Positions 7,589-50,499 of a DNA stretch of 64,000 nt are shown one piece after another. The stretch covers positions 2,848,001-2,912,000 of the forward strand of contig OY762964.1 of NCBI GenBank assembly GCA_963667035.1. The letters are read 5' to 3'. The position numbers were made by a program, and so were the translations under genes. Each line of letters begins with the position of its first letter. Position 1 is the first letter of the stretch. Source of the DNA: Candidatus Cloacimonadales bacterium. Its GTDB lineage: Bacteria; Cloacimonadota; Cloacimonadia; Cloacimonadales; JAFGVF01. The notes under the pieces were generated by a model that saw only the letters and a program-made list of their open reading frames with translations, searched no databases and was not told the origin of the DNA.

Positions 7589-7604
7589 TGGCACTAATAA
7601 TGCA
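7589..7604 (+). promoter_or_regulatory. sigma54-type -24/-12 promoter
   Basis: TGGCACTAATAATGCA: GG-N10-GC, close to the consensus TGGCAC-N5-TTGCW. Confidence 0.7.
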
Positions 7605-7947
7605 TAATAATTAAAATAGTGTTAGGAAGTGAAGCTATTCTTGAGAGTAAGATAGTGAGATCGTTCAATATGAGAGTTTTGGCAGTTAGGGAGCATTCTT
7701 GAGTGGGATGAGGTTATATGCCTGTATTAATGCCAGTTTGGCTCTTAAGAATTAAGGCAAAATTATATGTTAACAGATAATTAGTAATATTATCGGAACA
7801 AAAAATGTAGCTTTTCTCATCTGTAAACTATGTTTACACTTGTGACCTTTGGTGTCAATTTTGAAGTCAACCATAAGACATTGGTTTAAAGGATATTGTA
7901 AAAAAAAACAACAAAAAGTCACACTTTTTATACGCATTGGAGGATTT

Positions 7948-10197
7948 ATGAAGAAGATTATCATACCGGTAATTCTTTTCACACTATTTTTATCTTTATA
8001 CGCACAAGTAGAGGAATATTCCCCTATCGGCAAAATGTCCGATATTGGAAAAACTTTTAGAAACAGCTCTCGCCCTGCATTAAGAACATCAACTTATGAT
8101 TGGGAAATGGGATTTAATCCAATAATAGCAAACGATGCTAGTTATTGGGATTATATGGTTGGTACATATAATAGTACTCCTTTCCATAAACAACCTGATA
8201 ACATAGGTGGTGGTTATTACTATTCATATATGGGTAAATCCAGTTCTACAGCAGTAGGTAGAGCTCATTATGGTTACATGGATAGTGACTATAACATTCA
8301 AAATGATGATACTTTCTCACTATTCAACCGTTTAGAATGGTTTCCAGATAGCGTAATAGACGCAAATGGAAAGATGTTAATCTGCTATCACTCAGATTCT
8401 GATAATGACGGTTCTTACGAGCAACATTATGGATATGACCCTTTCTTTGCTAATATTCCCGGTATTCCATCTTCTGAAATAGATCTTATAGATAATCCTA
8501 TTCAGTTTAACGGTGTAAGTGATAATTATTTTACTTGGGGACAAATCAAAGTTGGAGAATCACCCCTTGGAAGTCCATATCAGAGAGTATATATTTTAAC
8601 TAGAAATAGAGTATCTCATTCAGTAATTGATGAGCAAACAGGTTCTCCAAAACCAAGTGAAAACCCATATATAGCTTATGCAGATTATGTACCGGATGAT
8701 CTTGATTTCGGAAATGCTCTTACTTGGAGCTATACTTCTATTCCTACTCTCAATGCTTGGAACGTTGATGATGTAGAATGGAGAAGACCTCTCATGGCTT
8801 TCTATTTAGGTACAGGAGCTCTTGAAGGTAAACTTTTCTACATGGGCTCTGCTGTTGGTGATTTAGAAGATGGAGAAGATAATTTTTACGTCTTTATTCA
8901 CGATAATTATGGTAATCCGGATACTGAGTGGAGACAGTTAACATTTAACACTGACTATCCTCTTGAGAATCCTCAAGATATTAATAACAATTATTATTTT
9001 GTTGATGAAGATAACAATAATGCACCTTACACTCTCCATTGGGGTATAGTGAATACAAATCACTTCAATATTACTGTAGATCAAGATAACAATTTGCACA
9101 TGCCTGCAACATTCTGTGTTAACTCACAAACTGGTTCATATTTCATCTATTTCCACAATGTAAAGGATATTATTTTCAATACAAGTACAGAAACCTTAGA
9201 TATTGTGGATGTATTCCCTCAGAGTAGTAATCCTAATGCCATGTACAATCCTTGGGATGAAGATGGAGATGGAAGTGTTGACCAGTATTGGGATGATGGG
9301 ACCTATGATGATATTGATGATGGTATTACTCCTGATAGTGAGGACTACGGTAAGATTAGAACAAATACATTATGGCCTTTCTTGTACTGGGATAAAGATA
9401 GTCATGAAGAAGCAATGTTCTTCCATTTAAATCTCCTTAAGATGACTAATGCCAATGAACATGGTGTTATGGCTATGATGTGGCATGATTCCAAAGCTGC
9501 TGTAGATTATAACGAAAGTGATTTATCATATTGGGAGCCTTATGCTGAGCAAAGTGAGTTATATGTAGCTGTTAGTGGAGATAATGGTCATACATGGCAA
9601 CCACCTTATGCTTTAAGTAGTGTAGATGTTGCTGATGATTTCTGGTATACTGATGATGGTCAATACCTTGGTTTTAGTGAAACTCACGAATATGTACCTG
9701 AATGGGAAAATATGAGACCACAGTATGTTACTCCATGTCCTGACATCGAATTCATGGGTACTGAAGACAATAACATTGAAAGACATAGAATGTTAATGTT
9801 CTTCTATGATGATCCTATATGGGGTTCTTCAGAACACGCTGTAGGATTAAGTGAATCAGGTCAGGTAGTTATTAATGCAATAGATTTTCTGTTACCTGAA
9901 AGCGTAGATAATGATGAAGAAATAAATACATTACCTGCAATTACTGAAGTATCAAACTATCCAAATCCGTTCAATCCTGAGACAACAATCAAGTATTCTA
10001 TTAAGAACTCTGGAAATGTTAAGCTTTCAGTTTATAACCTTAAAGGTCAGAAGATTGAAACTCTTGTAAATGAGAATCAAAACCCCGGTGAACATACTAT
10101 TGTTTGGGATGCTGCTAATCATGCAAGTGGTATATATTTCTATAAACTGCAAGCAGGAACTTACACAAGAACTAAGAAAATGATTCTGATGAAATAA
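7948..10197 (+). CDS. Secreted acidic protein with a T9SS type A / FlgD-Ig-like C-terminal sorting domain; possible beta-propeller
   Basis: SD GGAGG then ATG 7948 (MKKIIIPVILF signal peptide); Asp-box SGDNGHTW; DxDxDG motifs; C-terminal NYPNPFNPETTI...SGIYFYKL...KKMILMK. Confidence 0.85.
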   Translation: MKKIIIPVILFTLFLSLYAQVEEYSPIGKMSDIGKTFRNSSRPALRTSTYDWEMGFNPIIANDASYWDYMVGTYNSTPFHKQPDNIGGGYYYSYMGKSSSTAVGRAHYGYMDSDYNIQNDDTFSLFNRLEWFPDSVIDANGKMLICYHSDSDNDGSYEQHYGYDPFFANIPGIPSSEIDLIDNPIQFNGVSDNYFTWGQIKVGESPLGSPYQRVYILTRNRVSHSVIDEQTGSPKPSENPYIAYADYVPDDLDFGNALTWSYTSIPTLNAWNVDDVEWRRPLMAFYLGTGALEGKLFYMGSAVGDLEDGEDNFYVFIHDNYGNPDTEWRQLTFNTDYPLENPQDINNNYYFVDEDNNNAPYTLHWGIVNTNHFNITVDQDNNLHMPATFCVNSQTGSYFIYFHNVKDIIFNTSTETLDIVDVFPQSSNPNAMYNPWDEDGDGSVDQYWDDGTYDDIDDGITPDSEDYGKIRTNTLWPFLYWDKDSHEEAMFFHLNLLKMTNANEHGVMAMMWHDSKAAVDYNESDLSYWEPYAEQSELYVAVSGDNGHTWQPPYALSSVDVADDFWYTDDGQYLGFSETHEYVPEWENMRPQYVTPCPDIEFMGTEDNNIERHRMLMFFYDDPIWGSSEHAVGLSESGQVVINAIDFLLPESVDNDEEINTLPAITEVSNYPNPFNPETTIKYSIKNSGNVKLSVYNLKGQKIETLVNENQNPGEHTIVWDAANHASGIYFYKLQAGTYTRTKKMILMK

Positions 10198-10226
10198 GCG
10201 TCAGATAATAATCTTATATAAAGAAT

Positions 10227-10260
10227 ACAGGCTGTTGGTCTCCAACAGCCTGTGTTTTAT
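10227..10260. terminator. Intrinsic terminator between convergent genes
   Basis: ACAGGCTGTTGG-TCT-CCAACAGCCTGT followed by GTTTTATT. Confidence 0.8.
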
Positions 10261-10289
10261 TTCACTATTACTAAAGTTAATAAACTAAT

Positions 10290-10841
10290 TTATAGTAACA
10301 ATCTTAATGTTTCAAGTGAGTTCTTTGGGTACTTCTCATCAAGGACATAGTGGTTTATTTTAAAATCAGCTTGATTTAGAAGTTTTTCTAATTCCTGTAC
10401 AAATATACCCTTTCCAGGTATTTTAGTTGATTCTTCAAGTAGTTTTGCGTAACCATCGGCACTATTCACACCTTTCCAGTTCTCTCCCTTTGTTACTTTG
10501 GTTAGTCCACAGCTTGGACTTCCCTCTACAAAGATAATCCCTTCGATATGATATCCGTTATCACTATAGTCTTGAATCTGATGCAAAATCGGTTTAAAAA
10601 GCTTTTGGCAATGCTCCCTGAATGCAGGGAAGTCGAACTGATCCCTCACATGAGCCCATCTGCTTATTCCGAAATAGGTCATTTCAGGGCATGGCAGCTG
10701 AATGATTCCATAATCCTTTTCAACCAGTATCTGTAAAAGCTCTTTATGAACTCCGGGGAAGGGATTTATCCCTTCCACTTTAGAGTTAACATTTAAAAGA
10801 CAATGTGATATAAGTATTATCTTACGAGCTCTGTCCGACAT
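10290..10841 (-). CDS. DUF523/CD3072-like (TudS-related) Fe-S protein
   Basis: SHCLLNVNSKV, QLPCPE, GSPSCG motifs. Confidence 0.8.
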   Translation of the reverse strand: MSDRARKIILISHCLLNVNSKVEGINPFPGVHKELLQILVEKDYGIIQLPCPEMTYFGISRWAHVRDQFDFPAFREHCQKLFKPILHQIQDYSDNGYHIEGIIFVEGSPSCGLTKVTKGENWKGVNSADGYAKLLEESTKIPGKGIFVQELEKLLNQADFKINHYVLDEKYPKNSLETLRLLL

Positions 10842-13077: not shown

Positions 13078-14634
13078 TTAATCTTTTGGAGTCAGAATAG
13101 CAACGGGTAATATCATTTCCTCCATAGAGATTCCTCCATGTTGGAATGTTCCGTTGAATTGATTCTGATAGAAGTGAAAGGAATTAGGATATACAAAGAA
13201 GTAATCATCTTTTGCAAAAGAGAAATTATCCACAATGCTTCTTTCAGGTAAACCAAGATCACTTGGATTCTTTATGAAATAGGCATGTTTAGGATTAGCA
13301 GTTAAATTCTTACCCTCTTTGTACCTTAATGTTACCGAGGTTCTCTTATCTCCATAGATTTGAGTAGCCCTATTAACTTTAATTGAGCCGTGATCTGTAG
13401 TTATAATCACATTGGCTTTTTGCTGACTCATGAGTTTCAAGGCTTCATAGAGGGATGAATGCTGGAACCAGTGTTTTGTAAAGGCCCTCAAAGCTTCTTC
13501 ATCCGGAATAGTCTCTTGAAGGATAGTATCTTTAGACCTGTGATGAGCAACAAGATCCAGAAAATTATACACAAGGACAACCAGTTTTTCTTTATTCCAA
13601 GTGTTTATTTTTCTGAGAACATAATTCCCTTCTTCCATGTTGAATATCTTAACATATTTGGTTGAAGGAGAGACTGAATTCCCCAAATCTTTCAGAAGTT
13701 CATCAAGTAACTGGTGTTCATTTCTATTCCTACTGTTGTCAGATTCATTATCTTCAGCCCAATAATCAGGGAATCTATTAGCAATATCTTCAGGTAGAAG
13801 ACCGCTAAATATAGAGTTTCTTGAGTAAGGGGTAGCAGTGGGCAGTATACTGAAATACTTCTTCTCATCAACATTAAATAATTTTGAAATGTATGGTTCC
13901 ATAACCTTGTATTGATCCAATCTCATACAATCAAGAATAATAAAATAAGTAGGACGATTAGAATCTAAAAACGGAACAACATATTCACTTATAATATCAA
14001 AGGAAAGGTTCGGTCTATCATCAGATTGTAACCATCTTTTATAGTTATATTCAACGAAGTTACAGAATTCGGAGTTGCAATTTCTTTTTTCAAGAAAGTG
14101 TGTTTGCTTAAGAACTTGATCGTTAACGGTATCGAGTTTCATATCCCAATCAACAAATTGGTCATAAATATCATACCATTCTTCATAGGTTGGAGACATA
14201 TTAATTCTACCATTAATCTGAGCTATGAACCTGGCATAGTCTTCCCCAATCTTGTTTTGGCGAATTTCATCAGATTGAAAGATTTTCTTTATTGCCATGA
14301 TAATTTGATTAGGATTGATAGGTTTTATAAGATAATCGGCTATTTGACTTGCAATAGCCTTATCCATTAAGCCTTCTTCTTCACTTTTAGTAACCATTAT
14401 AATCGGTAAATTGGCATTTATATTCTTAATTTCTTTAAGAGTTGTTAAACCATCAAGTCCCGGCATCATTTCATCGAGTATTACCAGATCGAATCTATCT
14501 TTTAAAACTAAGTCAATAGCATCGGAACCGTTTGAAGCGGTTATGGTTTCAAATCCCTTTTTCTCTAAGAAAAGAACAAAAGGTCTTAGGAATTGAACTT
14601 CATCATCTACCCATAGGATTCGCATTTTTCGCAT
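13078..14634 (-). CDS. porX: PorX-like response regulator (REC + PglZ/alkaline-phosphatase domain)
   Basis: ILWVDDE, LDEMMPGLDG, VTKSEEE, DYLIKPINPNQI, SILPTATPYSRNSIFSG, TTDHG, FQHGGISMEEM. Confidence 0.88.
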   Translation of the reverse strand: MRKMRILWVDDEVQFLRPFVLFLEKKGFETITASNGSDAIDLVLKDRFDLVILDEMMPGLDGLTTLKEIKNINANLPIIMVTKSEEEGLMDKAIASQIADYLIKPINPNQIIMAIKKIFQSDEIRQNKIGEDYARFIAQINGRINMSPTYEEWYDIYDQFVDWDMKLDTVNDQVLKQTHFLEKRNCNSEFCNFVEYNYKRWLQSDDRPNLSFDIISEYVVPFLDSNRPTYFIILDCMRLDQYKVMEPYISKLFNVDEKKYFSILPTATPYSRNSIFSGLLPEDIANRFPDYWAEDNESDNSRNRNEHQLLDELLKDLGNSVSPSTKYVKIFNMEEGNYVLRKINTWNKEKLVVLVYNFLDLVAHHRSKDTILQETIPDEEALRAFTKHWFQHSSLYEALKLMSQQKANVIITTDHGSIKVNRATQIYGDKRTSVTLRYKEGKNLTANPKHAYFIKNPSDLGLPERSIVDNFSFAKDDYFFVYPNSFHFYQNQFNGTFQHGGISMEEMILPVAILTPKD

Positions 14635-19652: not shown

Positions 19653-22367
19653 TTAAATTTTAGGAAGATTAATCGTAAAAGTTGAGCCTTCCCCCACTGT
19701 GCTTTTAAGACTTATTGTACCACCATTCTTCTCAATAAAATCGTGAGATAATATCAATCCTAAACCTGAGTTTGAGTTATCTTTGGAACTTGATTTTATA
19801 GTGTCCTTTAACTGAAAAATTGATGATAATCGCGATTTGGGAATTCCGATACCTGAATCAGTGATAACAATACAAACATTATCATTGTGATAATAAGCAG
19901 ATACAATTATTGAGCCTTTAGAAGGTGTGAACTTTATGGCATTATTCAATAGATTTCTCAAAACCGTTTCTATTGAATGATAATCAAAGTAACCTATGAG
20001 ATTAGGTTCAATATTTGTTGCAATTTCGATTGATTTCCTTTGAGCAATACTGTAATATACTTTGAGAGTGTTTGCGATAAGCTTTTTAATCTCTACTTTA
20101 GTAGGATTGATAATGATACCGTCTCTCTGACTCCTAGACCACAATAACAGGTTTTCAAGAAGATTGAAAGTCTCACTGGCTTCCAAATGGAGTTCTCTGA
20201 TAAAATCAGATTTCTCTTCTTCCGTGAGAGAGTCCTCATTGTTGCTTATGAATTCCAGTACTGACTTAATGTTGCCTAGCGGAGCTCTCAAATCATGAGC
20301 AATTATTGAGAAGAATTGATCCTTTGTTCTATTTGCTAGTTTCAATTCTGTCTCCGATCTCTCCAACATTCTCTGAGTATTCATCTTATCTGTTACATCT
20401 ACAGTATAAATTGTAATCCCCTCAACTTGATTGCTATCACCGTAAATGGGACAATAGAAGTATTCTAATATCTCATGTCTTGACTCGAAATTATATTCTC
20501 TAATCCCTTTATGTATCTCACCTTTTAAAGCATTTTCTAAAATCTTTCTGTGAACATCTTTATCTTCTGCATCCGTATAGTTATCTAGGTAATAGCGTCC
20601 GGTCTTAATCTCTATACCCCGATGTCTTAGAACTGCCTGATAATAGTTTTTATTAAAAGAGGTATATCTAAAGTTTCTATCTAGTGAAGCAATATATATT
20701 TTATAAGGACTGTTCATTACTGATTTCAATAAACTGTTTAGTTGAGAGATAGAGTCCTCGTATTGTTTTGCTTCAGTGATATCAGAGAATACGCAGATAA
20801 AGCTATCCGGATTATTGAACTCATCGTGAAGCATGGAAATTGAGATATCTCCCCAAACAACTTTGTTTTGCTTGGAAATCATCCTATATACCTTTCTTAT
20901 GTATCTGGCATCAGTCTTAGTTAGCTCTGCAAAAATCTCATCAAGAACAACTCGTGACTTTCTGTTTGAGAAAACTTTTTGTTTAAATTTCTTGAGGTCA
21001 TGAAGTTCAAAACCTAATAACTCCTTAAGATATGTGTTGATAAACAACGGTTCCCATTTCACAGAAAAGACTGCTATACCTACAGCTGCATGATGGAAAA
21101 CAGCTGATAGCTGTTCTTCGGATTTGTGTAGAGATTTAATGAGCTCCTTCTTCTCTGTAAGGTCAATAAATGAACCTAGTATGCCTGCAATTTCCCCGTT
21201 GTTATCAAAGAATACATTTTTAAAGAACATTACATTAATAATCTTTCCTTCGTGATTATACAAGGAAGTTTCATATACTTGTAAAGTTCTCTCTTTAAGT
21301 AATTTTTTATCCATTTCCAGATACAGTTCTGTCTGACTCATAGAAGAGGATACTCCAACTTTTTTACCAATAAAATCTTCCCTAGTTCTCCCAAAAGTCT
21401 TTGCAAAGGCATCATTACATTCAAGATAAATTTCGTCATTGTTTATAACAAAGAAAGGAATTGGGATTGTATAAATAATCGTATTCAAGAAAGTATTCTT
21501 ATCCTCCAGGGAAGTTTGAAGCTCCATCAAGTGTTGGTTCTTAATTTCCAATTCATGTTTTTGTTTCTTAAGAATTTCCAATTCTTGCTTCTTGAGGAAA
21601 AACTCAGACTGAAAATCTCCCATTATCCGTTTTTGTTGCTCTTTGAAATCACTAAACTTAATATAGTATTCCAATGCTTTCTGAAAATCACCTTTCAAGC
21701 GATAGTAGTTATATGTATTTCTATAATGCAATTTCAACATATTAAGGTCGGCACATCTGTTGATATTCTCTTTATTATCTTCAATCCAGATATTAGCCTC
21801 TTTGAGCATTCCTGTCATAATGAAGCTATCCGCTAAATTAACCTTCATCAGACATATCATCATTCTATCTTGTTTGTTCAAAGTTGAATTTAAAACTTTC
21901 TCATAGATTCTGATTGCCTTGTCATGTCTTCCGATGTTTCTATATATCTCACAGATATTATTGTATATTACTAACTGACCTTGCCTGTTCCCAATAGTTT
22001 CCTGTATCTCTAATACTTTCTCAAGTTGTTCAATTGCTTTGTAGCTTTCTCCCCTACTATTGTAATATAGAGAAATATTGTTTAGGATATTGCATTGCTC
22101 ATTAAGATCTCCAACTTTAGTGAAATTATTCAAAGCCTTTGTAAAATATTTATAAGCTTTATCATATTGCTTAATTGAGAAGAAAATAATTCCTCTGAAT
22201 TTATCAATATAGGCTTTTGCAAGGAGATCTTCGTTGAATCCTTCCAAATTTATAATATCTTGAATTAGATTAAGTGCCTCAGCAGGAGACTTTTGGACAA
22301 TTCTTCCTAATTTATGAATCGCCTCTTCCAGTTGAGGAGTCGAAATCTTAAAACAATTTTGTTGCAT
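19653..22367 (-). CDS. Cytoplasmic TPR + multi-PAS sensor histidine kinase
   Basis: N-terminal TPRs, three PAS-like segments, H-box IIAHDLRAPL, NLLNNAIKFT, DSGIGI, GLGL, GEGSTF. Confidence 0.9.
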   Translation of the reverse strand: MQQNCFKISTPQLEEAIHKLGRIVQKSPAEALNLIQDIINLEGFNEDLLAKAYIDKFRGIIFFSIKQYDKAYKYFTKALNNFTKVGDLNEQCNILNNISLYYNSRGESYKAIEQLEKVLEIQETIGNRQGQLVIYNNICEIYRNIGRHDKAIRIYEKVLNSTLNKQDRMMICLMKVNLADSFIMTGMLKEANIWIEDNKENINRCADLNMLKLHYRNTYNYYRLKGDFQKALEYYIKFSDFKEQQKRIMGDFQSEFFLKKQELEILKKQKHELEIKNQHLMELQTSLEDKNTFLNTIIYTIPIPFFVINNDEIYLECNDAFAKTFGRTREDFIGKKVGVSSSMSQTELYLEMDKKLLKERTLQVYETSLYNHEGKIINVMFFKNVFFDNNGEIAGILGSFIDLTEKKELIKSLHKSEEQLSAVFHHAAVGIAVFSVKWEPLFINTYLKELLGFELHDLKKFKQKVFSNRKSRVVLDEIFAELTKTDARYIRKVYRMISKQNKVVWGDISISMLHDEFNNPDSFICVFSDITEAKQYEDSISQLNSLLKSVMNSPYKIYIASLDRNFRYTSFNKNYYQAVLRHRGIEIKTGRYYLDNYTDAEDKDVHRKILENALKGEIHKGIREYNFESRHEILEYFYCPIYGDSNQVEGITIYTVDVTDKMNTQRMLERSETELKLANRTKDQFFSIIAHDLRAPLGNIKSVLEFISNNEDSLTEEEKSDFIRELHLEASETFNLLENLLLWSRSQRDGIIINPTKVEIKKLIANTLKVYYSIAQRKSIEIATNIEPNLIGYFDYHSIETVLRNLLNNAIKFTPSKGSIIVSAYYHNDNVCIVITDSGIGIPKSRLSSIFQLKDTIKSSSKDNSNSGLGLILSHDFIEKNGGTISLKSTVGEGSTFTINLPKI

Positions 22368-22495: not shown

Positions 22496-24100
22496 GTGGC
22501 TCATATACCAAGATTACTTATTGTGGATGATGATAAAATAATTGTTAAAACCTTAAAATTCTACCTACTGAAAAATGATTATATCATAGATAGTTGTCAT
22601 AGTGGAATGGATGCTATGAAACTGGTAGAGAAAAATGATTATGATCTAGTACTTCTTGATGTCGTTATGCCTATTATGAACGGCTATCAAACTTGCTTAA
22701 AAATACACGAAATTAATAAAGAGCTTCCTGTAATTCTCATTACTGCAAATACTGAAGATGAGTCCTTAAAAGAGGGATTTGAAGTTGGTGCTATTGACTA
22801 TTTAAGAAAACCGGTGAATAAGGTCGAACTTCAAGCTAGAGTAAAGAATATTCTCAGAATAAGGGCAGCAGAAAAAGAGAAAGAAGATATCTATCAGAAG
22901 CTTCATAAAGAAGTTAGACTAGCAGCAAGAATTCAGGAGAATATGCTCCCGAAGTGGGTTTACTTAGATGACCAGATAATATTCTCTTCCCATTATGTTC
23001 CATCAGGTGACGTAGGTGGTGACCTCTTCGATTGGATTAAACTGGATAAAGATAGATATGTAGTTTATGTTGCTGATATATCGGGACATGGTGTGCAAGC
23101 AGCTTTACTAATGACTGCCATTAGAAGTATAATCAAGATGTTCGTCGAGAACATGCGTAAAGATATGCATATTCCTACTCTGTTAAATCAACTTAATCAG
23201 CGATTATCGGATGAACTATTTGAGACAAATTACATGACACTTATTCTAGGTATCATCGATGTTAATCAAAAACAGTTTAAATTTCTTAATGCCGGTCATC
23301 CACCTCTAATTGAATATAATACGGCAACAAAGAAAACTTTTATTTATGATAAGAAGGGCTCCGTTCCTATGGGATGGGATACTCAGATTAAATATACCGA
23401 TAATGATATTGATGTTATACAATTACGAGAAGATTCCGTATTCCTTCTCTACACAGACGGTCTAAACGAGTCTGTTGATGAGGACGGTAATGAATTCGGA
23501 ATAGAAGGACTCAGAAGAATAATTGAAGAAGAGATAGTGGTTGATAGTTGCATAACTTTCCCCTTCCGCTTAAAAGATTACATGAGTAAGAATAACTTCA
23601 ATATTCGACAGGATGATTTCACTCTCTTCAGCTTTCAATTACAAGACAATATTAACAATGTTGAAGTGGATGGTGTCTTGAAAAAGAAGATTCTGTTCAA
23701 AGTTCGCTCCATGTTAAAAGATGTTGGATATACAGCAGGAACTTGTGAAAAGAAAGTATTGGAGTGGACCGGAGATGCTAGACTGGCTTCAGAAATAGAA
23801 CTTGTAATTGATGAATTTCTTAATAATATTATCATACATGGCTATAATTATAAACATGATGCAATCATTGTGATTGAGTTTTCTTTCAGAAAGGATAGAA
23901 TCTCGGTAAGATTCTGGGATAAAGGTATTGAATGGGTGCCTGCCAGTATCAATTACTCCCGAGATAATCCTTACAGCTTTGAAGACGAAGTATTCATGGA
24001 AAGTGGCAAAGGTATTCATCTTGTACTTTCAATGGTAAACTGTTTCAGTAGAATGAGATTTGAAGATATTAATGAAACCGTAATGGAAATAGATTTATAG
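22496..24100 (+). CDS. REC-PP2C(SpoIIE)-HATPase_c fusion (HsbR-like partner-switch regulator)
   Basis: LIVDDD...LLDVVMP...KP; VGGDLF, ADISGHG, NAGHPP, YTDGL, DDFT; EFLNNIIIHG, WDKG, ESGKGIHLV. Confidence 0.88.
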   Translation: MAHIPRLLIVDDDKIIVKTLKFYLLKNDYIIDSCHSGMDAMKLVEKNDYDLVLLDVVMPIMNGYQTCLKIHEINKELPVILITANTEDESLKEGFEVGAIDYLRKPVNKVELQARVKNILRIRAAEKEKEDIYQKLHKEVRLAARIQENMLPKWVYLDDQIIFSSHYVPSGDVGGDLFDWIKLDKDRYVVYVADISGHGVQAALLMTAIRSIIKMFVENMRKDMHIPTLLNQLNQRLSDELFETNYMTLILGIIDVNQKQFKFLNAGHPPLIEYNTATKKTFIYDKKGSVPMGWDTQIKYTDNDIDVIQLREDSVFLLYTDGLNESVDEDGNEFGIEGLRRIIEEEIVVDSCITFPFRLKDYMSKNNFNIRQDDFTLFSFQLQDNINNVEVDGVLKKKILFKVRSMLKDVGYTAGTCEKKVLEWTGDARLASEIELVIDEFLNNIIIHGYNYKHDAIIVIEFSFRKDRISVRFWDKGIEWVPASINYSRDNPYSFEDEVFMESGKGIHLVLSMVNCFSRMRFEDINETVMEIDL

Positions 24101-31986: not shown

Positions 31987-32136
31987 TGCAAATAATGACA
32001 AGCTTTTTTTTCGATTTCTATTAAATTAGGGTATTTCTAGAGGGGAGTAGCACACATTATTACAACCGGAATCTTTGAATGTTCCCCTATCATATTAAGT
32101 TTGATGTCTTCTTTACTGCTCCTTCATCTCTCAGCA

Positions 32137-32610: not shown

Positions 32611-32734
32611 ACACTGGGTACGCCAGCATCTTGCTGGCACATACCGGGTACGCGAACATCCCTGTTCGCTATCTTCCCTATAAGATGCCGGTGGGAACTA
32701 GCGTGTGCGAGCTAGAAGCTCGCGTACCCAGTGT
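32611..32734. repeat. REP/REPIN-like palindromic element, 124 bp
   Basis: Perfect 13-bp terminal inverted repeat ACACTGGGTACGC...GCGTACCCAGTGT; three GGGTACGC-hairpin units; GC-rich in an AT-rich context. Confidence 0.8.
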
Positions 32735-32735
32735 G

Positions 32736-32882
32736 AATTATGAAGAGATATTAGATGCAATTAGGGATGAATCACTCCAGAAGCTTGGATATTTCCTCAA
32801 ACCTGAAAAGCTGTTCTCAGTAATAGCTGCTAAAGGTAACTCTGATAAAGCGGATGAAGATAACTATATCTTCCTGTATTGA
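32736..32882 (+). pseudogene. Short remnant resembling the N-terminal region of type I R-M HsdM
   Basis: EEILDAIRDESLQKLGYFLKPEKLFSVIAAKGN..DNYI resembles the HsdM LGYFLKPSELF segment; no native start, early stop. Confidence 0.6.
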
Positions 32883-32967
32883 GTAGACTAAACTCTTAAC
32901 TTATTTGTTTATTGACATACTGCCCAGATGTTTAATATTACCTTGAGTGAAGTTTTTAAGGAGTAAA

Positions 32968-34107: not shown

Positions 34108-34108
34108 T

Positions 34109-35143
34109 TTGGATAAGATACATTTAACCAGACATACAACGGCTGCAGGCTGAGGAGCTAAGCTGGGACCGGGGGTCCTAAGCAAAGCTCTTTGCGGTTT
34201 GAAACAACCTGAATACAAAAATATGCTTGTTGATTATAAGCATTCTGACGACGCAGGAGTCTATAAAATAAGTGATGATATAGCTTTGGTTCAGACTGTT
34301 GATTTCTTTCCACCGATTGTTGATGATCCATACACATTCGGTCAGATAGCTGCAGCAAATGCACTTTCTGATATCTATGCAATGGGTGGTACTCCAATAA
34401 CAGCTCTGAGCATAGTAGCTTTTCCTGATAAAACTCTGGATATAGAAGTGCTTAGACAGATAAATGCCGGAGGATTATCAAAATTGGTGGAAGCCGGTGT
34501 GGCATTAGTTGGCGGTCATAGTATCTCCGATGAAGAACTAAAGTATGGTCTATCAGTAACCGGAACAGTACATCCTGACAAGATTAAACTCAACAACTCG
34601 TTGGAGGCAGGCGATGTTTTAATCCTAACAAAACCATTAGGAAACGGCATAATCAACACTGCAATGAAAGTTGATATGGTTTCGCAGGAAACCGTTAAAC
34701 TCTCGGAACACTACATGTGTCAGCTAAACAAAGTTGCCTCTGAAGTAGCTTCTGAATTTGAAATTCATGCTTGTACGGATATAACCGGATTCGGACTTGC
34801 AGGACATCTTTGTGAGATGCTGGATGAAAGTAATCTTGGTGTAGAGATTGATTTTAAATCTCTTCAGCTTCTTCCTGAAACACTGGAAATGGCTGAAATG
34901 GTTATGGTACCCGGTGGAACATATAGAAACAAGACTTACAGAAAAGAAATGATTGTAGATTTTGATTCAATTAAACCCGAGTATCTGGATATAGTCTTTG
35001 ATCCCCAAACTTCCGGAGGTTTGATATTCTCACTTGAAGCAAACAATGCCGAGTTATTATTAAAAGCCCTGAAAGCTAATGAAATTGATGCTTTCTATGT
35101 AGGTAAATGTGTAGATAACTTTAGAGGAATAAAGATTATTTGA
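34109..35143 (+). CDS. selD: Selenophosphate synthetase SelD, selenocysteine-containing (in-frame UGA at codon 15)
   Basis: TTG 34109 after GAGG; reads MDKIHLTRHTTAAG-U-GAKLGP with TGA at 34151-34153; DDAGVY, QTVDFFPPIVDDP, DIYAMGG, TDITGFGL, DPQTSGGL. Confidence 0.95.
34161..34183 (+). promoter_or_regulatory. Bacterial SECIS-like hairpin
   Basis: GGGACC-GGG-GGTCCT stem-loop with a G-rich loop, starting 11 nt after the UGA. Confidence 0.75.
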
Positions 35144-35397
35144 TGGATATTGTTATAACCTTTAAATCAACCCATGAAGCAATGAAAGCAAAGAAACATG
35201 TCATAGTCCAACCATTAGAAGGTGAGATTATACCAACACCAAGAGAGATAAGTAAAGAATGTGGCTTTGCAATATTAGTAAAAAACTCTTCTGCCGATAA
35301 GGTAATGAAGTTTTTTGAAGACAACAGGCTTATCTATAGTCATATATATGAAGTAATAAATGAAGGAGGTAAGAAACGTTATGAAGAAAACAATTGA
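35143..35397 (+). CDS. DUF3343 family protein (selenium-metabolism associated)
   Basis: ITFKSTHEAMKA, IIPTPREISKECG; TGATG overlap with selD. Confidence 0.85.
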   Translation: MDIVITFKSTHEAMKAKKHVIVQPLEGEIIPTPREISKECGFAILVKNSSADKVMKFFEDNRLIYSHIYEVINEGGKKRYEENN

Positions 35398-35986
35398 TAC
35401 ATCGGGACTTGAATGCCCTAAACCTGTATTGAAAACTAAGGAAGCTTTATCCGATGGAATCGAAGAGCTGATTGTGATTGTTGATAATCCCGCAGCAAAA
35501 GAGAATGTGAGTCGATTTGTTGAGAAACAAGGTTATAGCATTCAAGATGTAAAATCTATTGGAAGTAAATTTGAGATTCACGTTAAAGGTCATGGGGATT
35601 CAAATGCCGAAGCTTTTAATGAAGATGATTACCAGTGTGCTATACCAATATCAAACGGTAAAGCTGTATTTATAAATAGTAACTGTGTAGGACGTGGTGA
35701 TGATGAGCTCGGTAAAAATCTTATGAAAGCCTTTATCTTCTCATTAAACGAAGTGGATAATATACCTGAGTCGATTCTCTTTATGAATTCAGGAGTCAAA
35801 CTATGTGTTGAAGGAGCCGAGACCTTAGAGAATCTCCAAAACCTTGAAAGCAAGGGAATTGAAATACTGGTATGTGGAACATGTTTGAACTTCTTTGGTA
35901 TAGCAGAGAAACTGAAAGTCGGGAAAGTTTCCAATATGTATGACATTGCCTCAGTTCTGACATCAAAGGCCACTCTTACCATATAA
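35381..35986 (+). CDS. yedF: Selenium metabolism protein YedF (TusA/SirA + DsrE-like)
   Basis: IDTSGLECPKPVLKTK, VDNPAAKENVSRF, GDDELG..LM..F, NSGV, CGTCL, VSNMYDI. Confidence 0.9.
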   Translation: MKKTIDTSGLECPKPVLKTKEALSDGIEELIVIVDNPAAKENVSRFVEKQGYSIQDVKSIGSKFEIHVKGHGDSNAEAFNEDDYQCAIPISNGKAVFINSNCVGRGDDELGKNLMKAFIFSLNEVDNIPESILFMNSGVKLCVEGAETLENLQNLESKGIEILVCGTCLNFFGIAEKLKVGKVSNMYDIASVLTSKATLTI

Positions 35987-37296: not shown

Positions 37297-38764
37297 CAAG
37301 CATCCCCCCGAAATTTAGAATAATGGTCATAATAAGTGACTGAAAAAGTGGTAATTTAAGTATAAAAATAGTCAAGAAAAAGCTTGAAAAGAGTGAGTCC
37401 CTATTTATTGTTGTTACGCTTAAAATAAAACAAAAGGAACTCACTATATGGAACTATCAATAATAAAAAAGCATAATCTGCAAGCTAAATTTTCAAAATT
37501 CATCAACAAAGTCACACATAGCTGTACTATCAAAGAGAAGAAATTTGTAAAAGAGCTTGTCAGTGGCATTTTGAAATCCGGTAGTTGTATAATCAGAAGG
37601 ATTGCAATGAGCCATGAAGTGAATATCTCATTAGAAAAGCTCTGCGAACGATATCGTCGTCATTTATCAAAACCTGAGTTGTACAAAAATCTATCAAATA
37701 TTCATCTGATTTGTGAAAGCAAGAAGATAGCATCTTATGACCTGATAGTCATTGATCCCAGCGACATAATGAAAAGCCATTCAAAGAAGATGGAAGGATT
37801 AACCAGAGTTAGAGACGGCAGTACAGGCGAGTGGTGTAACGGTTATGAAGTATTAGATATAATCAGAGTATCAAAAGAAGGTCATTCGCTTGAGATACGT
37901 CCTCTTGTGTCTGAATTGCATACTAACGACGAAGATCCGGGCATACTGAAACAGTCTGTGTTTGATCGGATCAATGATATTCAGGTGTATTCAGGAAATA
38001 AAGGGATATATGTAATGGATAGAGGTTATGATGATAAGGTAGTAATCAACTATTTAACAGAGAATGAGGCTTCATATATCATTCGCGTCAAAGGTAATCG
38101 TAACCTTTATGTAAATGGTAAGGAAATATCATTTAAGAAAGCTACTAAACATGTGAAATTGAAGTATAGAATCCAATCCGGTAATGCAACTCTTATCGCC
38201 GGAGTAATCAGAGTTGGAGTGCCAGTTGATGCTCATCACAAGAAAAAGGCAACACTTGTTTATTCTAACCTTGTCGTTGCCCGTTATATTAAGAAAGACG
38301 AATCAGGAAAAGATTGCCTCAAAGGTTTTTTCTATTTGAACTGTGATTTTCCAAATCGAGACCTTAGTGATTTGGAGTTGATAACAACTGCAATAAGAGG
38401 GTATCGTCTCCGCTGGAAAGTAGAAGAAGTACACCGTCATGTGAAGCAGGAGTATTCGTGGGAAGATATGCAGGTTATGACATTGGACAGGTTAAGAAAT
38501 CTGAACTGCATGTTATTATTGGCAGTCAGTTATCTTTATTCTTTGGATAAGTATCGATACGACTTTGCGGAAATGTATCAACACATTATGCTTAGTAAAA
38601 AGAGTAATCTAAAGGAATTATGTAAGTTTATCTACTACAGACTATCGGTTGTTGTTAAAAATCTATTCAGAGATTGGAAGCATTACTTTGTTCCAAAGTA
38701 TCAAGGTTGTCATGCAGAATGGGAGCAGATGACATGCTTATGATAAAAAACGGGGGGATGCCAG
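37297..38764 (+). mobile_element. Complete insertion sequence, IS4 superfamily, 1468 bp
   Basis: TIRs CAAGCATCCCCCCGAAATTTA and (rc) CTGGCATCCCCCCGTTTTTTA; 10-bp direct repeat TATTATTTTT at 37287-37296 and 38765-38774. Confidence 0.92.
37448..38743 (+). CDS. DDE transposase (IS4-type YREK motif)
   Basis: VIDPSD, VMDRGYD, YRLRWKVEEVHRHVK; intact 431 aa. Confidence 0.92.
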   Translation: MELSIIKKHNLQAKFSKFINKVTHSCTIKEKKFVKELVSGILKSGSCIIRRIAMSHEVNISLEKLCERYRRHLSKPELYKNLSNIHLICESKKIASYDLIVIDPSDIMKSHSKKMEGLTRVRDGSTGEWCNGYEVLDIIRVSKEGHSLEIRPLVSELHTNDEDPGILKQSVFDRINDIQVYSGNKGIYVMDRGYDDKVVINYLTENEASYIIRVKGNRNLYVNGKEISFKKATKHVKLKYRIQSGNATLIAGVIRVGVPVDAHHKKKATLVYSNLVVARYIKKDESGKDCLKGFFYLNCDFPNRDLSDLELITTAIRGYRLRWKVEEVHRHVKQEYSWEDMQVMTLDRLRNLNCMLLLAVSYLYSLDKYRYDFAEMYQHIMLSKKSNLKELCKFIYYRLSVVVKNLFRDWKHYFVPKYQGCHAEWEQMTCL

Positions 38765-45447: not shown

Positions 45448-45536
45448 TCTCAATTGTTATAGACAGATAATTGAATATATTATAAGTTGTATATCTAGAT
45501 TTATTAATATAATACGTGCACACATTTCTTCAACTT

Positions 45537-45552
45537 AGGAATTGTAATTGCA
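45537..45552 (+). promoter_or_regulatory. sigma54-type -24/-12 promoter
   Basis: AGGAATTGTAATTGCA (GG-N10-GC), about 57 nt upstream of the Rgp-like ATG. Confidence 0.65.
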
Positions 45553-45608: not shown

Positions 45609-48600
45609 ATGAAAAAATTGAGCCTAGCTATAATGTTAGTTTTGCTAACAGGGCTACTTTTAGGTGAAACTGTGAAGATTTCATCGGGAATGAATTCAGT
45701 TCGTTTAATATCGTCTGATCGAAATACTACTGTACTCTCCCTAACAATAAACGAGTTTGAGAAAAGCAGTATAAGAATTGCTGGAGAAGATTATAGTGTT
45801 ATCAGCTTAGATAAAGAGCCACTTAGTCAAGTTAAGGGAGCTCCTATGCTACCCGAAGTTAATAGAAGTATAGTTATCCCTGCATTCACAAATTCTGAAA
45901 TTAGAGTATTGGAAAGTAGCTATAAAGATTATGATATGAATATTGCACCATCTAAAGGTCCGATTACAAGAGATATTAATCCTGAAGACGTTGCCTATAC
46001 TTTTGGTCCTGCATATAGCATAAATTCATTTTATCCCGCTGATATAACCGAGTTAAGTGAACCATATATTCTGAGAGACATGAGAGGTATTGTAGTTAAG
46101 TTTAAGCCTTTTATCTATAATCCTGTTACAAAGACATTGAGAGTTTATACTAATTTACTGGTTGAAGTTGAAAATAGCGGTATTAACATGGAGAATTCAC
46201 TTTCTAGGGAAACAAATTCCTACAGCAAAGAGTTTATTTCTTTATATGAAAACCATTTTATGAATTTCTCAACTCAGAGATATACTCCTGTTGAAGAAAC
46301 AGGCTCACTTTTAGCAATTGCTCCAACCCAATATATGGATTTAATGCAAGAATATGTAGATTGGAAGAATCAAAAAGGTATCCCCTCCGAACTTGTTGAG
46401 CTTTCAACCATTGGAACAACTGCAACAGAGATTCAGTCCTACATTCAAAACTATTATGACAACAATCCTAATCTAACATTTGTTCAATTGGCTGGAGATG
46501 CACCTCAATTACCTGCATTAAGTCATGTATATCAATATCAAACAGGTGGGGCCGATCCTATCTTAGCTTTGGTAAATGGTACTGATTCTTATCCGGATTT
46601 GTTCGTAGGAAGATTTTCTGCGGAAACAGTCGATCAATTAGAAACACAAATTGATAGAGTAATCTGGTATGAAAGAGATATAGATGAAACTGCAGAATGG
46701 TTGAATAATGCTATGGGTATTGCTTCAGATGAAGGTGGTACAAATGGTAATGGCGATATGGGCGAATCTGATATCATTCATATGAATAATATTAGAACAG
46801 ACCTTAATGACTACGGCTATCAGACAATTGATCAAGTATATGATCCAAGTGCTAGTTCATCTTCAGTTGCAAATAATGTCAATCAAGGTAGAGGTTTTAT
46901 AAATTATGTGGGGCATGGCTCAACAACTGCTTGGTATACAACAGGTTTTAGTGTAAGCAATTGTAATCAATTAACTAATAACTATAAACTTCCTTTCATT
47001 GTTAGCGTTGCGTGTATAAATGGTAACTTTGTTTCGAATACATGCTTTGCTGAAGCCTGGACTAGAGCTACTAACGGTGATGCTCCTACAGGTGCTATTG
47101 CTTTCTATGGATCCTCAGTTAATCAGGATTGGAATTCACCAATGAGGGGACAAGACGAAATAGTCGACTTACTTATTGCTGAAGAGAAAACCTCGGTAGG
47201 TGGATTATTCTATAATGGTTCTTGCGAAATGATGGATAACTATGGCTCTGTTGGACAAAGTATGTATAAAACATGGAATATTTTCGGAGATGCATCTCTG
47301 ATGGTTAGAACTAAACAACCTAGTGAAATGACTGTATCACATATGCCGACTTTCTTCTTAGGTGCAACTTCATTCAATGTTTCTGTCTCAAATCTCGACA
47401 ACAATAATCAAGCTTTAGTTAGTATCTCTGAAAATGGTGTGATGCTTGGATCAGGATATACCGATAACACTGGCATTGCAGAGGTTGAACTTGATTCAAC
47501 ACCTTCCGAACCTACAACCCTTACTATAACAGTAACTGCTTTTAATAAAATTACTTATACTGCTGATTTGTTAGTTACATCAGCCCAAGGTCCTTACATT
47601 GTAGTGAATGACTTAGCTTTCACAAATCCTGATGATGCTCAATTCGGTAGAACAGGTATCTTGAATATATCTCTTGAGAATGTAGGTATAGATGATTCTA
47701 GTGAATTAAATATTAGCATTGCTTCAGATGATTCAAATATTGTTATCTCACAATCAGAAGCTACATCAAATGCAATTGCTACTAATAATGTTACTACTAT
47801 AGATAATGCTTTCACTGTTCAGATTAGTGACTCAATTACTGATCAATACATTATTCCGATAACTGTCACAATTACCGATAATGCAGATAACTCATGGATT
47901 ACAGAAAAGCAACTTCTAGTTAATGCCCCATCGTTAACTGTAGAATCAGTTAATTGGACAGAAATAAGTGGAAATGGTAATACACTAATTGATCAAGGAG
48001 AGATTTGGAATTTACAGTTTATTGCTGTTAATAATGGACATGCAACAACAAGAAATGGTTATACTACTCTTACATTTGAAAATGATATGGTTAGCTACAT
48101 ACCTTCAGAAATCCCATACTTCACAAGACTAGGTATAGGAGCTAGTGTAATTGGTAATTATAATGTTGCCTTTAGCAGTCAAATTGCTACCCCTGAAACC
48201 ATAGGCTTTGAATATGGTATAGTTGCAGGAAATTATGTTTATGAATCATCTGATTCCATTATTCTTGGACTAACTATGGAAACATTCGATAATAGTTTCT
48301 ATAACTACGAGTATACATTTAGTGGTGGTGATTGGACTATCGATTCCAATGGAAGCCATGACGGTGCTGCAGCAAAATCACCAGATATTGGTAATAGTTC
48401 AGTGACTTCTATGCAAGTCACTATGAATGTTGTGCAAGCAGGTCAAATATCATTCTGGAAAAGAGTATCCTCTGAATTGAGTTATGATTGTTTAAAATTC
48501 TATATTGATAACCAAGCCCAAGATGAGTGGTCGGGTACTGTGAATTGGTCACAGAATACTTATGATGTTACTGCAGGCAATCATACATTTAAATGGGAAT

Positions 48601-49319
48601 ACTCAAAAGACTGGATGTCATCAAGTGGAGATGATTGCGTTTGGGTTGACGATATTATTTATCCTTTCGTCCCTGCATCTCAAGGAGCTCCTGATTTTTC
48701 AATAGACACTTTAAATATTGATTTTGGTGAAGTTTCTGTAGGACAAGAGAATTCGCAGAGCATCACGATATCTAACTCTGGCGATGGTATAATGATAGGC
48801 CGAATAAATTCTATAAGCCCAGATTTCACTATAAGGAAAAATGAAGTCAATTATGATGAGCTTTCTTATTACATGGAATCAGGTCAGTCATTTGAATTTG
48901 AGATTGCTTTTACTCCAACAGAACTCGGTAATCTATCTGAGCAGATTATTGTATTTAGCGATGATCCAAATAATTTGGAAACTGGTATTCTAGTATACGG
49001 TGTCGGAAGACCAACTGATAATAATGACAATGTAGCCGTTTATTCAACATCGCTTAAAGGTAATTATCCTAATCCGTTTAATCCTGAAACAAATATTTCT
49101 TTCTCTCTGAAAGATAACAGTAACGTAAAAATAGAAATCTATAATATACTTGGTAAAAAGATTAACACTATCATGAATGCTGAGATGACTAAAGGTAATC
49201 ATACAGTCGTCTGGAAAGGAATTGATACTAATGGTAAGCAGGTATCTAGCGGTATATATTTTTATAGAATGACTGCTGGTAAATATAAAGAAACTAATAA
49301 GATGATACTAATGAAGTAA
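45609..49319 (+). CDS. Gingipain-family (C25) cysteine protease, Rgp-like, with propeptide, Ig/adhesin-like domains and T9SS-type CTD
   Basis: Signal peptide; APSKG...EPYILRDMRG propeptide; GRFS, GESDIIH, NYVGHGS, SVACINGNF, CFAEAW, SPMRGQDE, FGDASL; NYPNPFNPET...KMILMK. Confidence 0.92.
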   Translation: MKKLSLAIMLVLLTGLLLGETVKISSGMNSVRLISSDRNTTVLSLTINEFEKSSIRIAGEDYSVISLDKEPLSQVKGAPMLPEVNRSIVIPAFTNSEIRVLESSYKDYDMNIAPSKGPITRDINPEDVAYTFGPAYSINSFYPADITELSEPYILRDMRGIVVKFKPFIYNPVTKTLRVYTNLLVEVENSGINMENSLSRETNSYSKEFISLYENHFMNFSTQRYTPVEETGSLLAIAPTQYMDLMQEYVDWKNQKGIPSELVELSTIGTTATEIQSYIQNYYDNNPNLTFVQLAGDAPQLPALSHVYQYQTGGADPILALVNGTDSYPDLFVGRFSAETVDQLETQIDRVIWYERDIDETAEWLNNAMGIASDEGGTNGNGDMGESDIIHMNNIRTDLNDYGYQTIDQVYDPSASSSSVANNVNQGRGFINYVGHGSTTAWYTTGFSVSNCNQLTNNYKLPFIVSVACINGNFVSNTCFAEAWTRATNGDAPTGAIAFYGSSVNQDWNSPMRGQDEIVDLLIAEEKTSVGGLFYNGSCEMMDNYGSVGQSMYKTWNIFGDASLMVRTKQPSEMTVSHMPTFFLGATSFNVSVSNLDNNNQALVSISENGVMLGSGYTDNTGIAEVELDSTPSEPTTLTITVTAFNKITYTADLLVTSAQGPYIVVNDLAFTNPDDAQFGRTGILNISLENVGIDDSSELNISIASDDSNIVISQSEATSNAIATNNVTTIDNAFTVQISDSITDQYIIPITVTITDNADNSWITEKQLLVNAPSLTVESVNWTEISGNGNTLIDQGEIWNLQFIAVNNGHATTRNGYTTLTFENDMVSYIPSEIPYFTRLGIGASVIGNYNVAFSSQIATPETIGFEYGIVAGNYVYESSDSIILGLTMETFDNSFYNYEYTFSGGDWTIDSNGSHDGAAAKSPDIGNSSVTSMQVTMNVVQAGQISFWKRVSSELSYDCLKFYIDNQAQDEWSGTVNWSQNTYDVTAGNHTFKWEYSKDWMSSSGDDCVWVDDIIYPFVPASQGAPDFSIDTLNIDFGEVSVGQENSQSITISNSGDGIMIGRINSISPDFTIRKNEVNYDELSYYMESGQSFEFEIAFTPTELGNLSEQIIVFSDDPNNLETGILVYGVGRPTDNNDNVAVYSTSLKGNYPNPFNPETNISFSLKDNSNVKIEIYNILGKKINTIMNAEMTKGNHTVVWKGIDTNGKQVSSGIYFYRMTAGKYKETNKMILMK

Positions 49320-49344
49320 AAATAGTAATAACTCACACAGAAAT

Positions 49345-49375
49345 AAGGCTGTTAAGAAAACAGCCTTTTCTTTTT
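49345..49375 (+). terminator. Intrinsic terminator
   Basis: AAGGCTGTT-AAGAA-AACAGCCTT followed by TTCTTTTT. Confidence 0.8.
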
Positions 49376-49494
49376 ACCCTCATAATTCACTTCATGTTAA
49401 ATCTATAATTAGACAACTATAATATAAATTGATTGACAATATGCTAATGTTAAATTTAACTCTGCAGTATTAATATATAATGCTTTGTTAAAAA

Positions 49495-49740
49495 CTCGCA
49501 AGAATGCGAATAAGGTCAACCTCGTCAAGCATATAGACGAGGTCAGTTAGTAGCGGATGTCATTAAGTATCAAGAGTATGGTAAAAGTATTTTGCATGGA
49601 ATGGAATAATTATAGCATGGGAAGACCATTCTGTGTAGTGGCAAATTTTACCTGCTCATTACTCCCCTTGGTACTAGGACATAATTATTGTTACTACTGA
49701 AATAGTGCAGTAGGGGTAGGTCTTTTCTCCCTACCCCTAA
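49495..49740 (+). ncRNA. Candidate structured non-coding RNA of unknown family
   Basis: Two 5' hairpins, a ~155-nt irregular rod (49544-49699) with many G.U pairs that only form on the + strand, and a GC-rich 3' hairpin TAGGGGTAGG/CCTACCCCTA; TTGACA upstream at about 49433. Confidence 0.5.
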
Positions 49741-49876
49741 TTACTAGTAATATGATTTTATGCCTCTAATAGTTTATTATTGAAACTCAATATAATATGC
49801 TCCTCTGATTAACAGCCATTACTTATAGCGACAATTAACTTGACCCTAATACTTACTATTTTAATGATGATTAGTT

Positions 49877-50479
49877 ATGGATAATAAAGAATTAACAACT
49901 TATGAGTTCTACGAAAAGAATTGGAAGGACTACGGTAATAAAACTGTCAATATTATACCGTATAGCTTTATAAAAAGCTTTTTAAGATTAATTCCTGATA
50001 AAAAAGATCTTATACTGGAATTAGGGAGCGGTTCTGGCAATTGTTTAAAACACATTCAGGAAGAAGGTTTTAATATCTGTGGAAGCGATTATATTATTGA
50101 TATAGTGCTAAATCTAAAACAGAAAGTTGATTGCTGTTCTTATGTTATTGATTTCTCTGATATTGAGTTCTTAAACTCTTTTATTGGGAACACGACAGTA
50201 AAACATGTTTTTGCTAACGCAGCTTTGCAACATCTTGATGTTTCAAGTTTGTTAAATTTATTAAGGAATATCAATATTGAAGGTTTTCTGGGATTTAACC
50301 TAAAGGAAGGTTCTGGAGAAATCTTACTTGAAGATGGAAGAAAAGAAATGCGTTATCAAAAAAGACAGATTGAACGAATTCTTAATGAGAAATATGATAT
50401 TGTTTATTTTGAGAAAACTGATGATTTGATGGGAAGAAATTTTAGCTGGTTGAACTGGATTACTCAAATCAAAAAGTGA
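49877..50479 (+). CDS. Class I SAM-dependent methyltransferase
   Basis: ILELGSGSG motif I, GSD, FANAALQH, LKEG. Confidence 0.8.
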   Translation: MDNKELTTYEFYEKNWKDYGNKTVNIIPYSFIKSFLRLIPDKKDLILELGSGSGNCLKHIQEEGFNICGSDYIIDIVLNLKQKVDCCSYVIDFSDIEFLNSFIGNTTVKHVFANAALQHLDVSSLLNLLRNINIEGFLGFNLKEGSGEILLEDGRKEMRYQKRQIERILNEKYDIVYFEKTDDLMGRNFSWLNWITQIKK

Positions 50480-50483
50480 ATTT

Positions 50484-50499
50484 AGGAACTAATTTTGCA
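50484..50499 (+). promoter_or_regulatory. sigma54-type -24/-12 promoter
   Basis: AGGAACTAATTTTGCA (GG-N10-GC), about 50 nt upstream of the Kgp-like ATG. Confidence 0.7.

Follow-up and report, generated by a model that had tools for sequence, protein, structure and literature searches.

Candidate sigma-54 promoters of gingipain-like C25 peptidase genes in Cloacimonadota

How is type IX secretion system (T9SS) cargo transcribed in Cloacimonadota, a phylum of amino-acid fermenters that are abundant degraders of protein and amino acids in anaerobic digesters and of which, to our knowledge, no member has been cultured? The question is raised by a 64,000-nt stretch of DNA from a Candidatus Cloacimonadales bacterium (contig OY762964.1, positions 2,848,001 to 2,912,000; hereafter the window; G+C content 34.9%), where a sequence-only reading had noticed GG-N10-GC strings, the mark of sigma-54 (RpoN) promoters, upstream of three genes for proteins with a T9SS-type C-terminal sorting domain (CTD), and had proposed a sigma-54 regulon of T9SS cargo, perhaps responsive to nitrogen. 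We found that the motifs behave as genuine -24/-12 promoters rather than as chance matches, and we consider it likely that the two C25 (gingipain-like) cysteine peptidase genes of the window are transcribed from sigma-54 promoters, in a wiring conserved in the phylum. The genes and sites concerned are as follows, with scores from a sigma-54 position weight matrix (PWM).

7948..10197, (+) strand: secreted protein of 749 amino acids (aa) whose N-terminus resembles a signal peptide and whose only recognised domain is a T9SS type A sorting domain (PF18962, TIGR04183)
45609..49319, (+) strand: C25 (gingipain-like) cysteine peptidase A, carrying a sorting domain of T9SS type A (Pfam, TIGR04183)
50549..54307, (+) strand: C25 (gingipain-like) cysteine peptidase B, with a propeptide, immunoglobulin-like domains and, at its C-terminus, a sorting domain of T9SS type A (PF01364, PF08126, PF18962, TIGR04183)
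7589..7604, (+) strand: sigma-54-like site TGGCACTAATAATGCA, one mismatch to TGGCAC-N5-TTGCW, PWM score 16.5
45537..45552, (+) strand: sigma-54-type -24/-12 motif AGGAATTGTAATTGCA, GG-N10-GC with TTGCA, its GG 71 nt before the ATG of peptidase A, PWM score 10.5
50484..50499, (+) strand: sigma-54-type -24/-12 motif AGGAACTAATTTTGCA, its GG 64 nt before the ATG of peptidase B, PWM score 12.5

The three strings lie on the (+) strand exactly at 7589, 45537 and 50484, as had been reported, each on the sense strand upstream of its gene with GG and GC exactly 10 nt apart. That the window encodes three T9SS-type CTD proteins was borne out as well: Pfam annotation of 45 window open reading frames (ORFs) returned PF18962 (Por_Secre_tail) in exactly three proteins, beside ordinary housekeeping genes, the TIGR04183 domain scored 51.2, 40.5 and 37.9 bits in these three (cut-off 23), and our own CTD hidden Markov model (HMM) found the 7948, 45609 and 50549 proteins only. 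Peptidases A and B are paralogues with 29% identity; the closest named relatives of both come from Candidatus Cloacimonadota or Cloacimonas, and the closest orthologue of the 45609 protein, P0002, is 68% identical to it. Published passages indicate that T9SS may be present in Cloacimonadota (PMC11285876) and note C25 peptidases there (PMC8542988).

The textbook sigma-54 consensus is TGGCAC-N5-TTGCW. A loose GG-N10-GC string sought upstream of three chosen genes might be found by chance: the bare string has 159 matches in the window on both strands, the full consensus at up to three mismatches has 213 matches vs 191 ± 13 in shuffled sequence, and the 45537 site has three mismatches to it, the 50484 site two and the 7589 site one. 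Among the 22 window matches to the tighter pattern GG-N8-TTGCW, only those at 45538 and 50485 are intergenic by ORF coordinates. When the PWM was applied to the 24 window genes with their own upstream region (gap of at least 40 nt, at most 400 nt scanned), a score of at least 9.5 was reached before 3/3 CTD genes vs 1/21 others (Fisher p=0.002), the other 20 scoring 7.9 or less. The one other gene is the methyltransferase gene at 49877, preceded by a GG-N10-GC site at 49602. We rejected this site: L014, the closest relative, lacks it but has kept the sigma-70-type promoter of the same gene, which makes the latter a contrast case between the two C25 genes.

49840..49868, (+) strand: sigma-70-type promoter TTGACC-17-AATGAT of the methyltransferase gene 49877-50479, conserved in L014

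The window's relatives give the stronger evidence. We fetched 74 loci from species-representative genomes by alignment to C25 homologues; 36 of them, one (L003) included on similarity, form with the window a Cloacimonadota set of 603,405 nt, in which 209 genes have an upstream region of their own; genes were dropped if no neighbour preceded them or if the gap to it was under 40 nt. CTD genes (134 over all sources) were marked with an HMM built from the C-termini of the window proteins and their homologues. Within 300 nt upstream, GG-N8-TTGC precedes 15/46 CTD genes vs 5/163 others in the Cloacimonadota set (p=1.2e-7), and with the window excluded 13/43 vs 4/137 (p=1.9e-6). The reverse strand gave 1/46 CTD genes vs 6/163 others, and varying the spacer from N4 to N12 gave 0, 2, 0, 1, 15, 2, 0, 1 and 0 CTD genes, so that only the sigma-54 spacing stands out. 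Shuffled upstream regions held 2.8 ± 1.6 matches vs 18 observed (last 150 nt). The five non-CTD matches seem unconvincing: a tRNA-Val gene contains one of them, another is only 24 nt away from a start codon and, read by eye, a third is part of a hairpin and a fourth follows a mis-called start, which leaves a PAP2 protein gene (L014|19664) as the only plausible match. In 38 loci from other phyla (Zixibacteria, Ignavibacteriota, Calditrichota and others) enrichment was weak (6/38 vs 9/211, p=0.015). Enrichment in independent relatives, on one strand and at one spacing only, makes a chance origin very improbable.

Chance would also not be expected to conserve the positions of the motif and leave its spacer free, which is what we observed. 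In 18 aligned CTD-associated sites the GG, the T before GC and the GC are invariant, an A follows GG+1 in 15/18, and the spacer is free, giving a lineage consensus of tTGGaAy-N5-TTGCwt. In 15 of these sites the GG precedes the ATG by 44-96 nt; the remaining ones, at 110, 284 and 293 nt, are doubtful. In L014, whose orthologue of the 50549 protein is 73% identical, the block GTTTAGGAACT..TTTTGCAC of the 50484 site is kept and the spacer has changed. Conservation in relatives was complete for the 50484 site and partial for the 45537 site. The motif precedes 6/6 orthologues of the 50549 gene found by tblastn (window, L014, L002, L008, L012 and L010; 35-73% identity), in each case 55-96 nt before the ATG; among 45609-type genes with their own upstream region it precedes 3/7, namely the window gene and its orthologues L012|9950 and L038|10001, where similar sites stand.

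The association is strongest in the C25 family, in which 9/12 genes carry the motif and a tenth, in L038, has TTATGC. Among non-C25 CTD genes it was found in 6/34 (six families, one member each, with one of the six carriers, L047, doubtful), still above the 5/163 of non-CTD genes (p=0.004); the carriers include an M14 carboxypeptidase, a CarboxypepD_reg/Cleaved_Adhesin protein and a beta-helix protein. L001 10001-16297 (+) encodes a 2098-aa protein in which a C25 peptidase is fused to a Porphyromonas-type peptidyl-arginine deiminase domain (PF04371).

If the element is real, it might still be read by something other than sigma-54. TTGGAAC...TTGCAT could be recognised by a sigma factor of the extracytoplasmic function (ECF) type with GGAAC as its -35 box, by a Bacteroidota-type primary sigma factor with TAnnTTTG at -7, or by a dedicated transcription factor. 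GGAAC does resemble ECF -35 boxes, positions 50490-50497 read TAATTTTG, and rpoN was not seen directly. The GG-to-GC spacing, however, is fixed at 10 nt, we found by eye no conserved CGT-type -10 box 16-17 nt further on, and the element is not palindromic. TAnnTTTG occurs in 1/15 sites and in Cloacimonadota upstream regions at chance level (16 vs 14.5 expected in 209 regions), unlike TTGAC[AT], which is about 4-fold over-represented (63/209 regions vs 14.8 expected); the Bacteroidota-type reading was rejected on these counts. One such site also lies directly after the gene of an NtrC-type activator, and we regard another recogniser as improbable. The resemblance to sigma-54 -24/-12 promoters extends to the 10 nt between GG and GC, the T before GG, TTGCW as the -12 element, the position 44-96 nt before start codons and the genes for GAFTGA activators nearby in relatives; the Cloacimonadota consensus differs in preferring GGAAC/T over GGCAC.

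Sigma-54 promoters call for an activator. No PF00158 activator was found among the window ORFs, and a six-frame search of the Cloacimonadota loci for GAFTGA returned two proteins, both with PF00158, so that GAFTGA enhancer-binding proteins exist in the phylum.

L022:4827-6254, (+) strand: NtrC-type activator (receiver, PF00158, HTH_8) with GAFTGA, preceded by a TPR histidine kinase
L029:3548-5893: TPR-PF00158-HTH_8 activator with GAFTGA, divergent from a CTD gene

On L022, 3344-14308 (+), the order is TPR histidine kinase, NtrC-type activator, 220 nt containing TTTGGCACACTATGTGCT, single-domain receiver and CTD genes, several of them for CarboxypepD_reg + CTD proteins and with gaps of 13 and 28 nt. 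The site, L022|6478, matches a relaxed pattern (GG-N9-TGC) and heads the CTD-gene operon directly after the activator gene. The L029 activator has a full-length orthologue with 59% identity in P0123 (780 aa, TPR-AAA+-HTH), which contains PF00158, Walker A and GAFTGA and matches sigma-54 activator models, and another full-length orthologue, P0124, in the closest relative. A GAFTGA enhancer-binding protein, P0123, is very probably encoded in the window's genome, elsewhere on the same contig, and the sequence-only reading's expectation of such proteins was well placed. GAFTGA is described as the element that contacts sigma-54 (passages of PMC3162934); because P0123 carries it, we infer that rpoN is present in the window's genome. 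In L002, at ~5800-6000 (+), a C25 gene has direct repeats (ATAACGG units and AATCTGTGTGAGACC) located ~60-200 nt upstream of its sigma-54-type site. They could serve as binding sites for an activator; they were not seen in other loci.

Together, these findings suggest the following model. The 45609 and 50549 genes, both for T9SS type A cargo, would be transcribed from sigma-54-dependent promoters at 45537-45552 and 50484-50499, where sigma-54 RNA polymerase would form a closed complex on GG/TTGC and start ~12 nt past the GC only once an AAA+ enhancer-binding protein, for which the TPR-AAA+-HTH protein P0123 is the candidate, hydrolyses ATP. For peptidase B this predicts a transcription start ~12 nt past the GC of the 50484 site. 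The same wiring would be kept across the phylum for C25 peptidases and would extend to a minority of the CTD cargo genes or operons outside that family, the bulk of such cargo being transcribed from ordinary TTGACA promoters; the outcome would be tight on/off control of C25 peptidases and some other cargo. That the C25 proteases are switched on by a dedicated activator protein is probable; dependence on sigma-54, the identity of the acting activator and its signal are what we infer from the promoter and activator sequences.

Several observations weigh against this interpretation. No RpoN-box match was found in the window or the 74 loci. The 45537 site (AGGAAT) fits the textbook consensus poorly, at three mismatches, although the lineage consensus favours GGAA over GGCA, and 45609 orthologues in L002, L008, L004 and L001 are without the motif. 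The PWM is an approximate one with no database source, and genes were called with a simple home-made ORF caller that placed some starts wrongly. The sample is biased, with loci fetched by C25/CTD similarity, and the matches are not independent because many are orthologues. When the 46 CTD genes were clustered without their CTD they fell into 26 families, only seven of which have any motif-bearing member, and 31/46 CTD genes are without the motif. Comparison of the DNA upstream of the three window sites with that upstream of the orthologue's site in L014 revealed no shared 9-mer or inverted repeat.

How far, then, would sigma-54 control extend beyond the C25 genes? The sequence-only reading saw it as co-ordinating the whole class of T9SS cargo, perhaps in answer to nitrogen. 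The motif does precede 3/3 window CTD genes, and its enrichment among non-C25 CTD genes persists. Since most CTD genes lack the motif, many of them in relatives carrying TTGACA-type promoters instead, "all T9SS cargo" overstates the target set, which consists mainly of C25 genes. As for nitrogen, no NtrB/NtrC pair, GlnK or nitrogen-assimilation gene was identified in linkage to any site, and the activators seen have TPR or receiver inputs; this part of the proposal was not supported. Class-wide, nitrogen-responsive coordination is unlikely.

The 7589 site poses a question of its own, as it is at once the best canonical match in the window and the most distant from its gene. It is the only window site with a PWM score of at least 14 and the only one-mismatch match to TGGCAC-N5-TTGCW among the 200 of 213 matches listed. 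With both strands counted, 603 kb contain 10 sites that score at least 16 (eight genic by our own gene calls, seven in plausible genes), and such sites are so rare that a chance occurrence in the 388-nt gap that holds 7589, where ~0.003 are expected, is unlikely. By sequence, 7589 is probably a real sigma-54 binding site. It starts 30 nt past the stop of a GH38-like gene, its end is separated by 344 nt from the ATG at 7948, and the chances that it drives gene 7948 through a leader of ~330 nt are close to even. The leader (7605-7947) had no Rfam match at E<=1, no (+) strand ORF above 27 aa and a fold z-score of -0.48.

It may instead be that 7948 uses a proximal promoter and that 7589 is a sigma-70-type promoter, an orphan or intergenic sigma-54 binding site or the promoter of an unannotated transcript, a reading to which we give slightly less than an even chance. 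The site can be read just as well as sigma-70-like TTGGCA-18-TAAAAT (10/12), and its GG is 358 nt from the ATG, vs 44-96 nt for 15/18 aligned sites. No such site precedes L013|2591, a homologue of the 7948 protein, or the full-length homologues in L074 and L052, which sit in operons that we take from our own reading of N-terminal sequences to be ExbBD/TonB-like; the 7948 homologues in the fetched loci are paralogues in other contexts. Sigma-54 is moreover reported to bind many non-promoter sites in Escherichia coli (PMC4591121). Against this stand the rarity of so good a match and an equally strong site in L015, likewise far upstream of another CTD gene.

L015 5578-5593, (+) strand: strong sigma-54-type site TGGCACACATCGTGCA by PWM, 313 nt before a 1472-aa CTD gene at 5891-10309

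The L015 site, one of the eight genic ones that score at least 16, follows ftsZ and a terminator-like hairpin (both read by eye), which parallels the distal 7589, and it overlaps a doubtful, likely spurious 112-aa ORF on the opposite strand. Its leader has a fold z-score of -1.39 and no similarity beyond the promoter. The proposal that all three window sites are promoters was supported for 45537 and 50484 and left ambiguous for 7589 by its distance and its sigma-70-like reading. A proximal look-alike at 7850 (TGGTGTCAATTTTGAA) was rejected, having GA in place of the required GC. The string ACAGATAATT has two exact copies only in the window (7773-7782 and 45463-45472, both (+)), both upstream of CTD genes and 75-78 nt before a GG-N8-TTG element; at up to one mismatch it is no more frequent in the window than in shuffled sequence.

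In Porphyromonas gingivalis, PorXY-SigP controls the genes of the T9SS secretion machinery by way of an ECF sigma factor. The window does encode a PorX equivalog, as the sequence-only reading had recognised, and no further T9SS component was found there; the PorV-like gene that it had also named was not found among the 45 window ORFs scanned with Pfam or the 18 scanned with NCBIfam.

13078..14634, (-) strand: PorX-type T9SS response regulator (receiver + PglZ; Pfam; NCBIfam NF052313 equivalog, 682 bits, cut-off 300)

The two systems differ in that machinery genes are reached through an ECF sigma factor in P. gingivalis, whereas here cargo genes are preceded by a motif of sigma-54 architecture. 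An ECF link to T9SS control is mentioned in passages of PMC9723704, the same source that gives the nearest precedent. In Flavobacterium psychrophilum a sigma-54 motif (SM4) drives the remFG-sprCDBF gliding operon, which encodes the T9SS-secreted adhesin SprB, and exported proteins; T9SS machinery genes have an ECF-type motif in front of them instead, and housekeeping promoters are of the TAnnTTTG type (PMC9723704). It parallels the case proposed here in being a T9SS bacterium of the Fibrobacterota-Chlorobiota-Bacteroidota (FCB) group with a sigma-54 promoter before a T9SS-secreted surface protein, beside other promoter types. It differs in phylum, in its target (the SprB adhesin there, C25 gingipain-like peptidases here), in its TAnnTTTG housekeeping promoters, not seen in Cloacimonadota, and in its evidence, which includes transcription starts and reporters. 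Secreted and surface proteins as targets also fit the theme of Francke et al. 2011, passages of which present sigma-54 as a controller of the bacterial exterior and GAFTGA as the mark of true activators (PMC3162934); its main text is without Cloacimonas/Cloacamonas, Bacteroidetes or Porphyromonas. With subscription journals outside the scope, we found no literature linking Cloacimonetes with rpoN or treating sigma factors in this phylum, none among the matches listed that places gingipain-family genes under sigma-54, and Flavobacterium as the only relevant precedent joining type IX secretion to sigma-54.

Judged from these sequences, the promoters would be ordinary sigma-54 promoters, and what is new would be a predicted, phylum-conserved target set. 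A broader model, in which sigma-54 and a TPR-domain enhancer-binding protein gate gingipain-like proteolysis throughout the phylum, as a cargo-level T9SS layer separate from PorXY-ECF control of the machinery and sometimes via unusually long leaders (7589, L015), we offer tentatively, as something that may well not hold in full. If true, a conserved sigma-54 switch on the main secreted peptidases would be a testable handle on the timing of extracellular proteolysis, sigma-54 control of T9SS cargo would reach beyond the single Flavobacterium case, and co-regulated cargo could be predicted in metagenome-assembled genomes by a rule based on sequence.

Other features of the window were noted in passing. 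Rfam and tRNA scans of the window gave no match, and the gene of peptidase A is followed by a hairpin.

49345..49367, no strand assigned: bidirectional terminator-like hairpin after C25 peptidase A, read from the sequence

A receiver-SpoIIE phosphatase-HATPase_c_2 fusion at 22496-24100 (+) is divergent from a TPR-PAS histidine kinase at 19653-22367 (-), an arrangement that suggests a signalling module of the partner-switching type. At 34106-35143 (+), a SelD-like AIRS gene has a TTG as its apparent start, yet the frame runs on further upstream across an in-frame TGA (…TTAAGUGAKLGPGVL…), and its product is probably a selenocysteine-containing selenophosphate synthetase; its neighbours encode a class-V aminotransferase (32947-34107) and a TusA/DsrE protein (35360-35986). 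Between the aminotransferase gene and a divergent Rrf2 regulator gene, 978 nt (31969-32946) hold short ORFs only, with none of at least 100 aa and no Rfam match. A DDE transposase gene (PF01609) at 37448-38743 (+) lies between this sulfur/selenium gene group and yidC.

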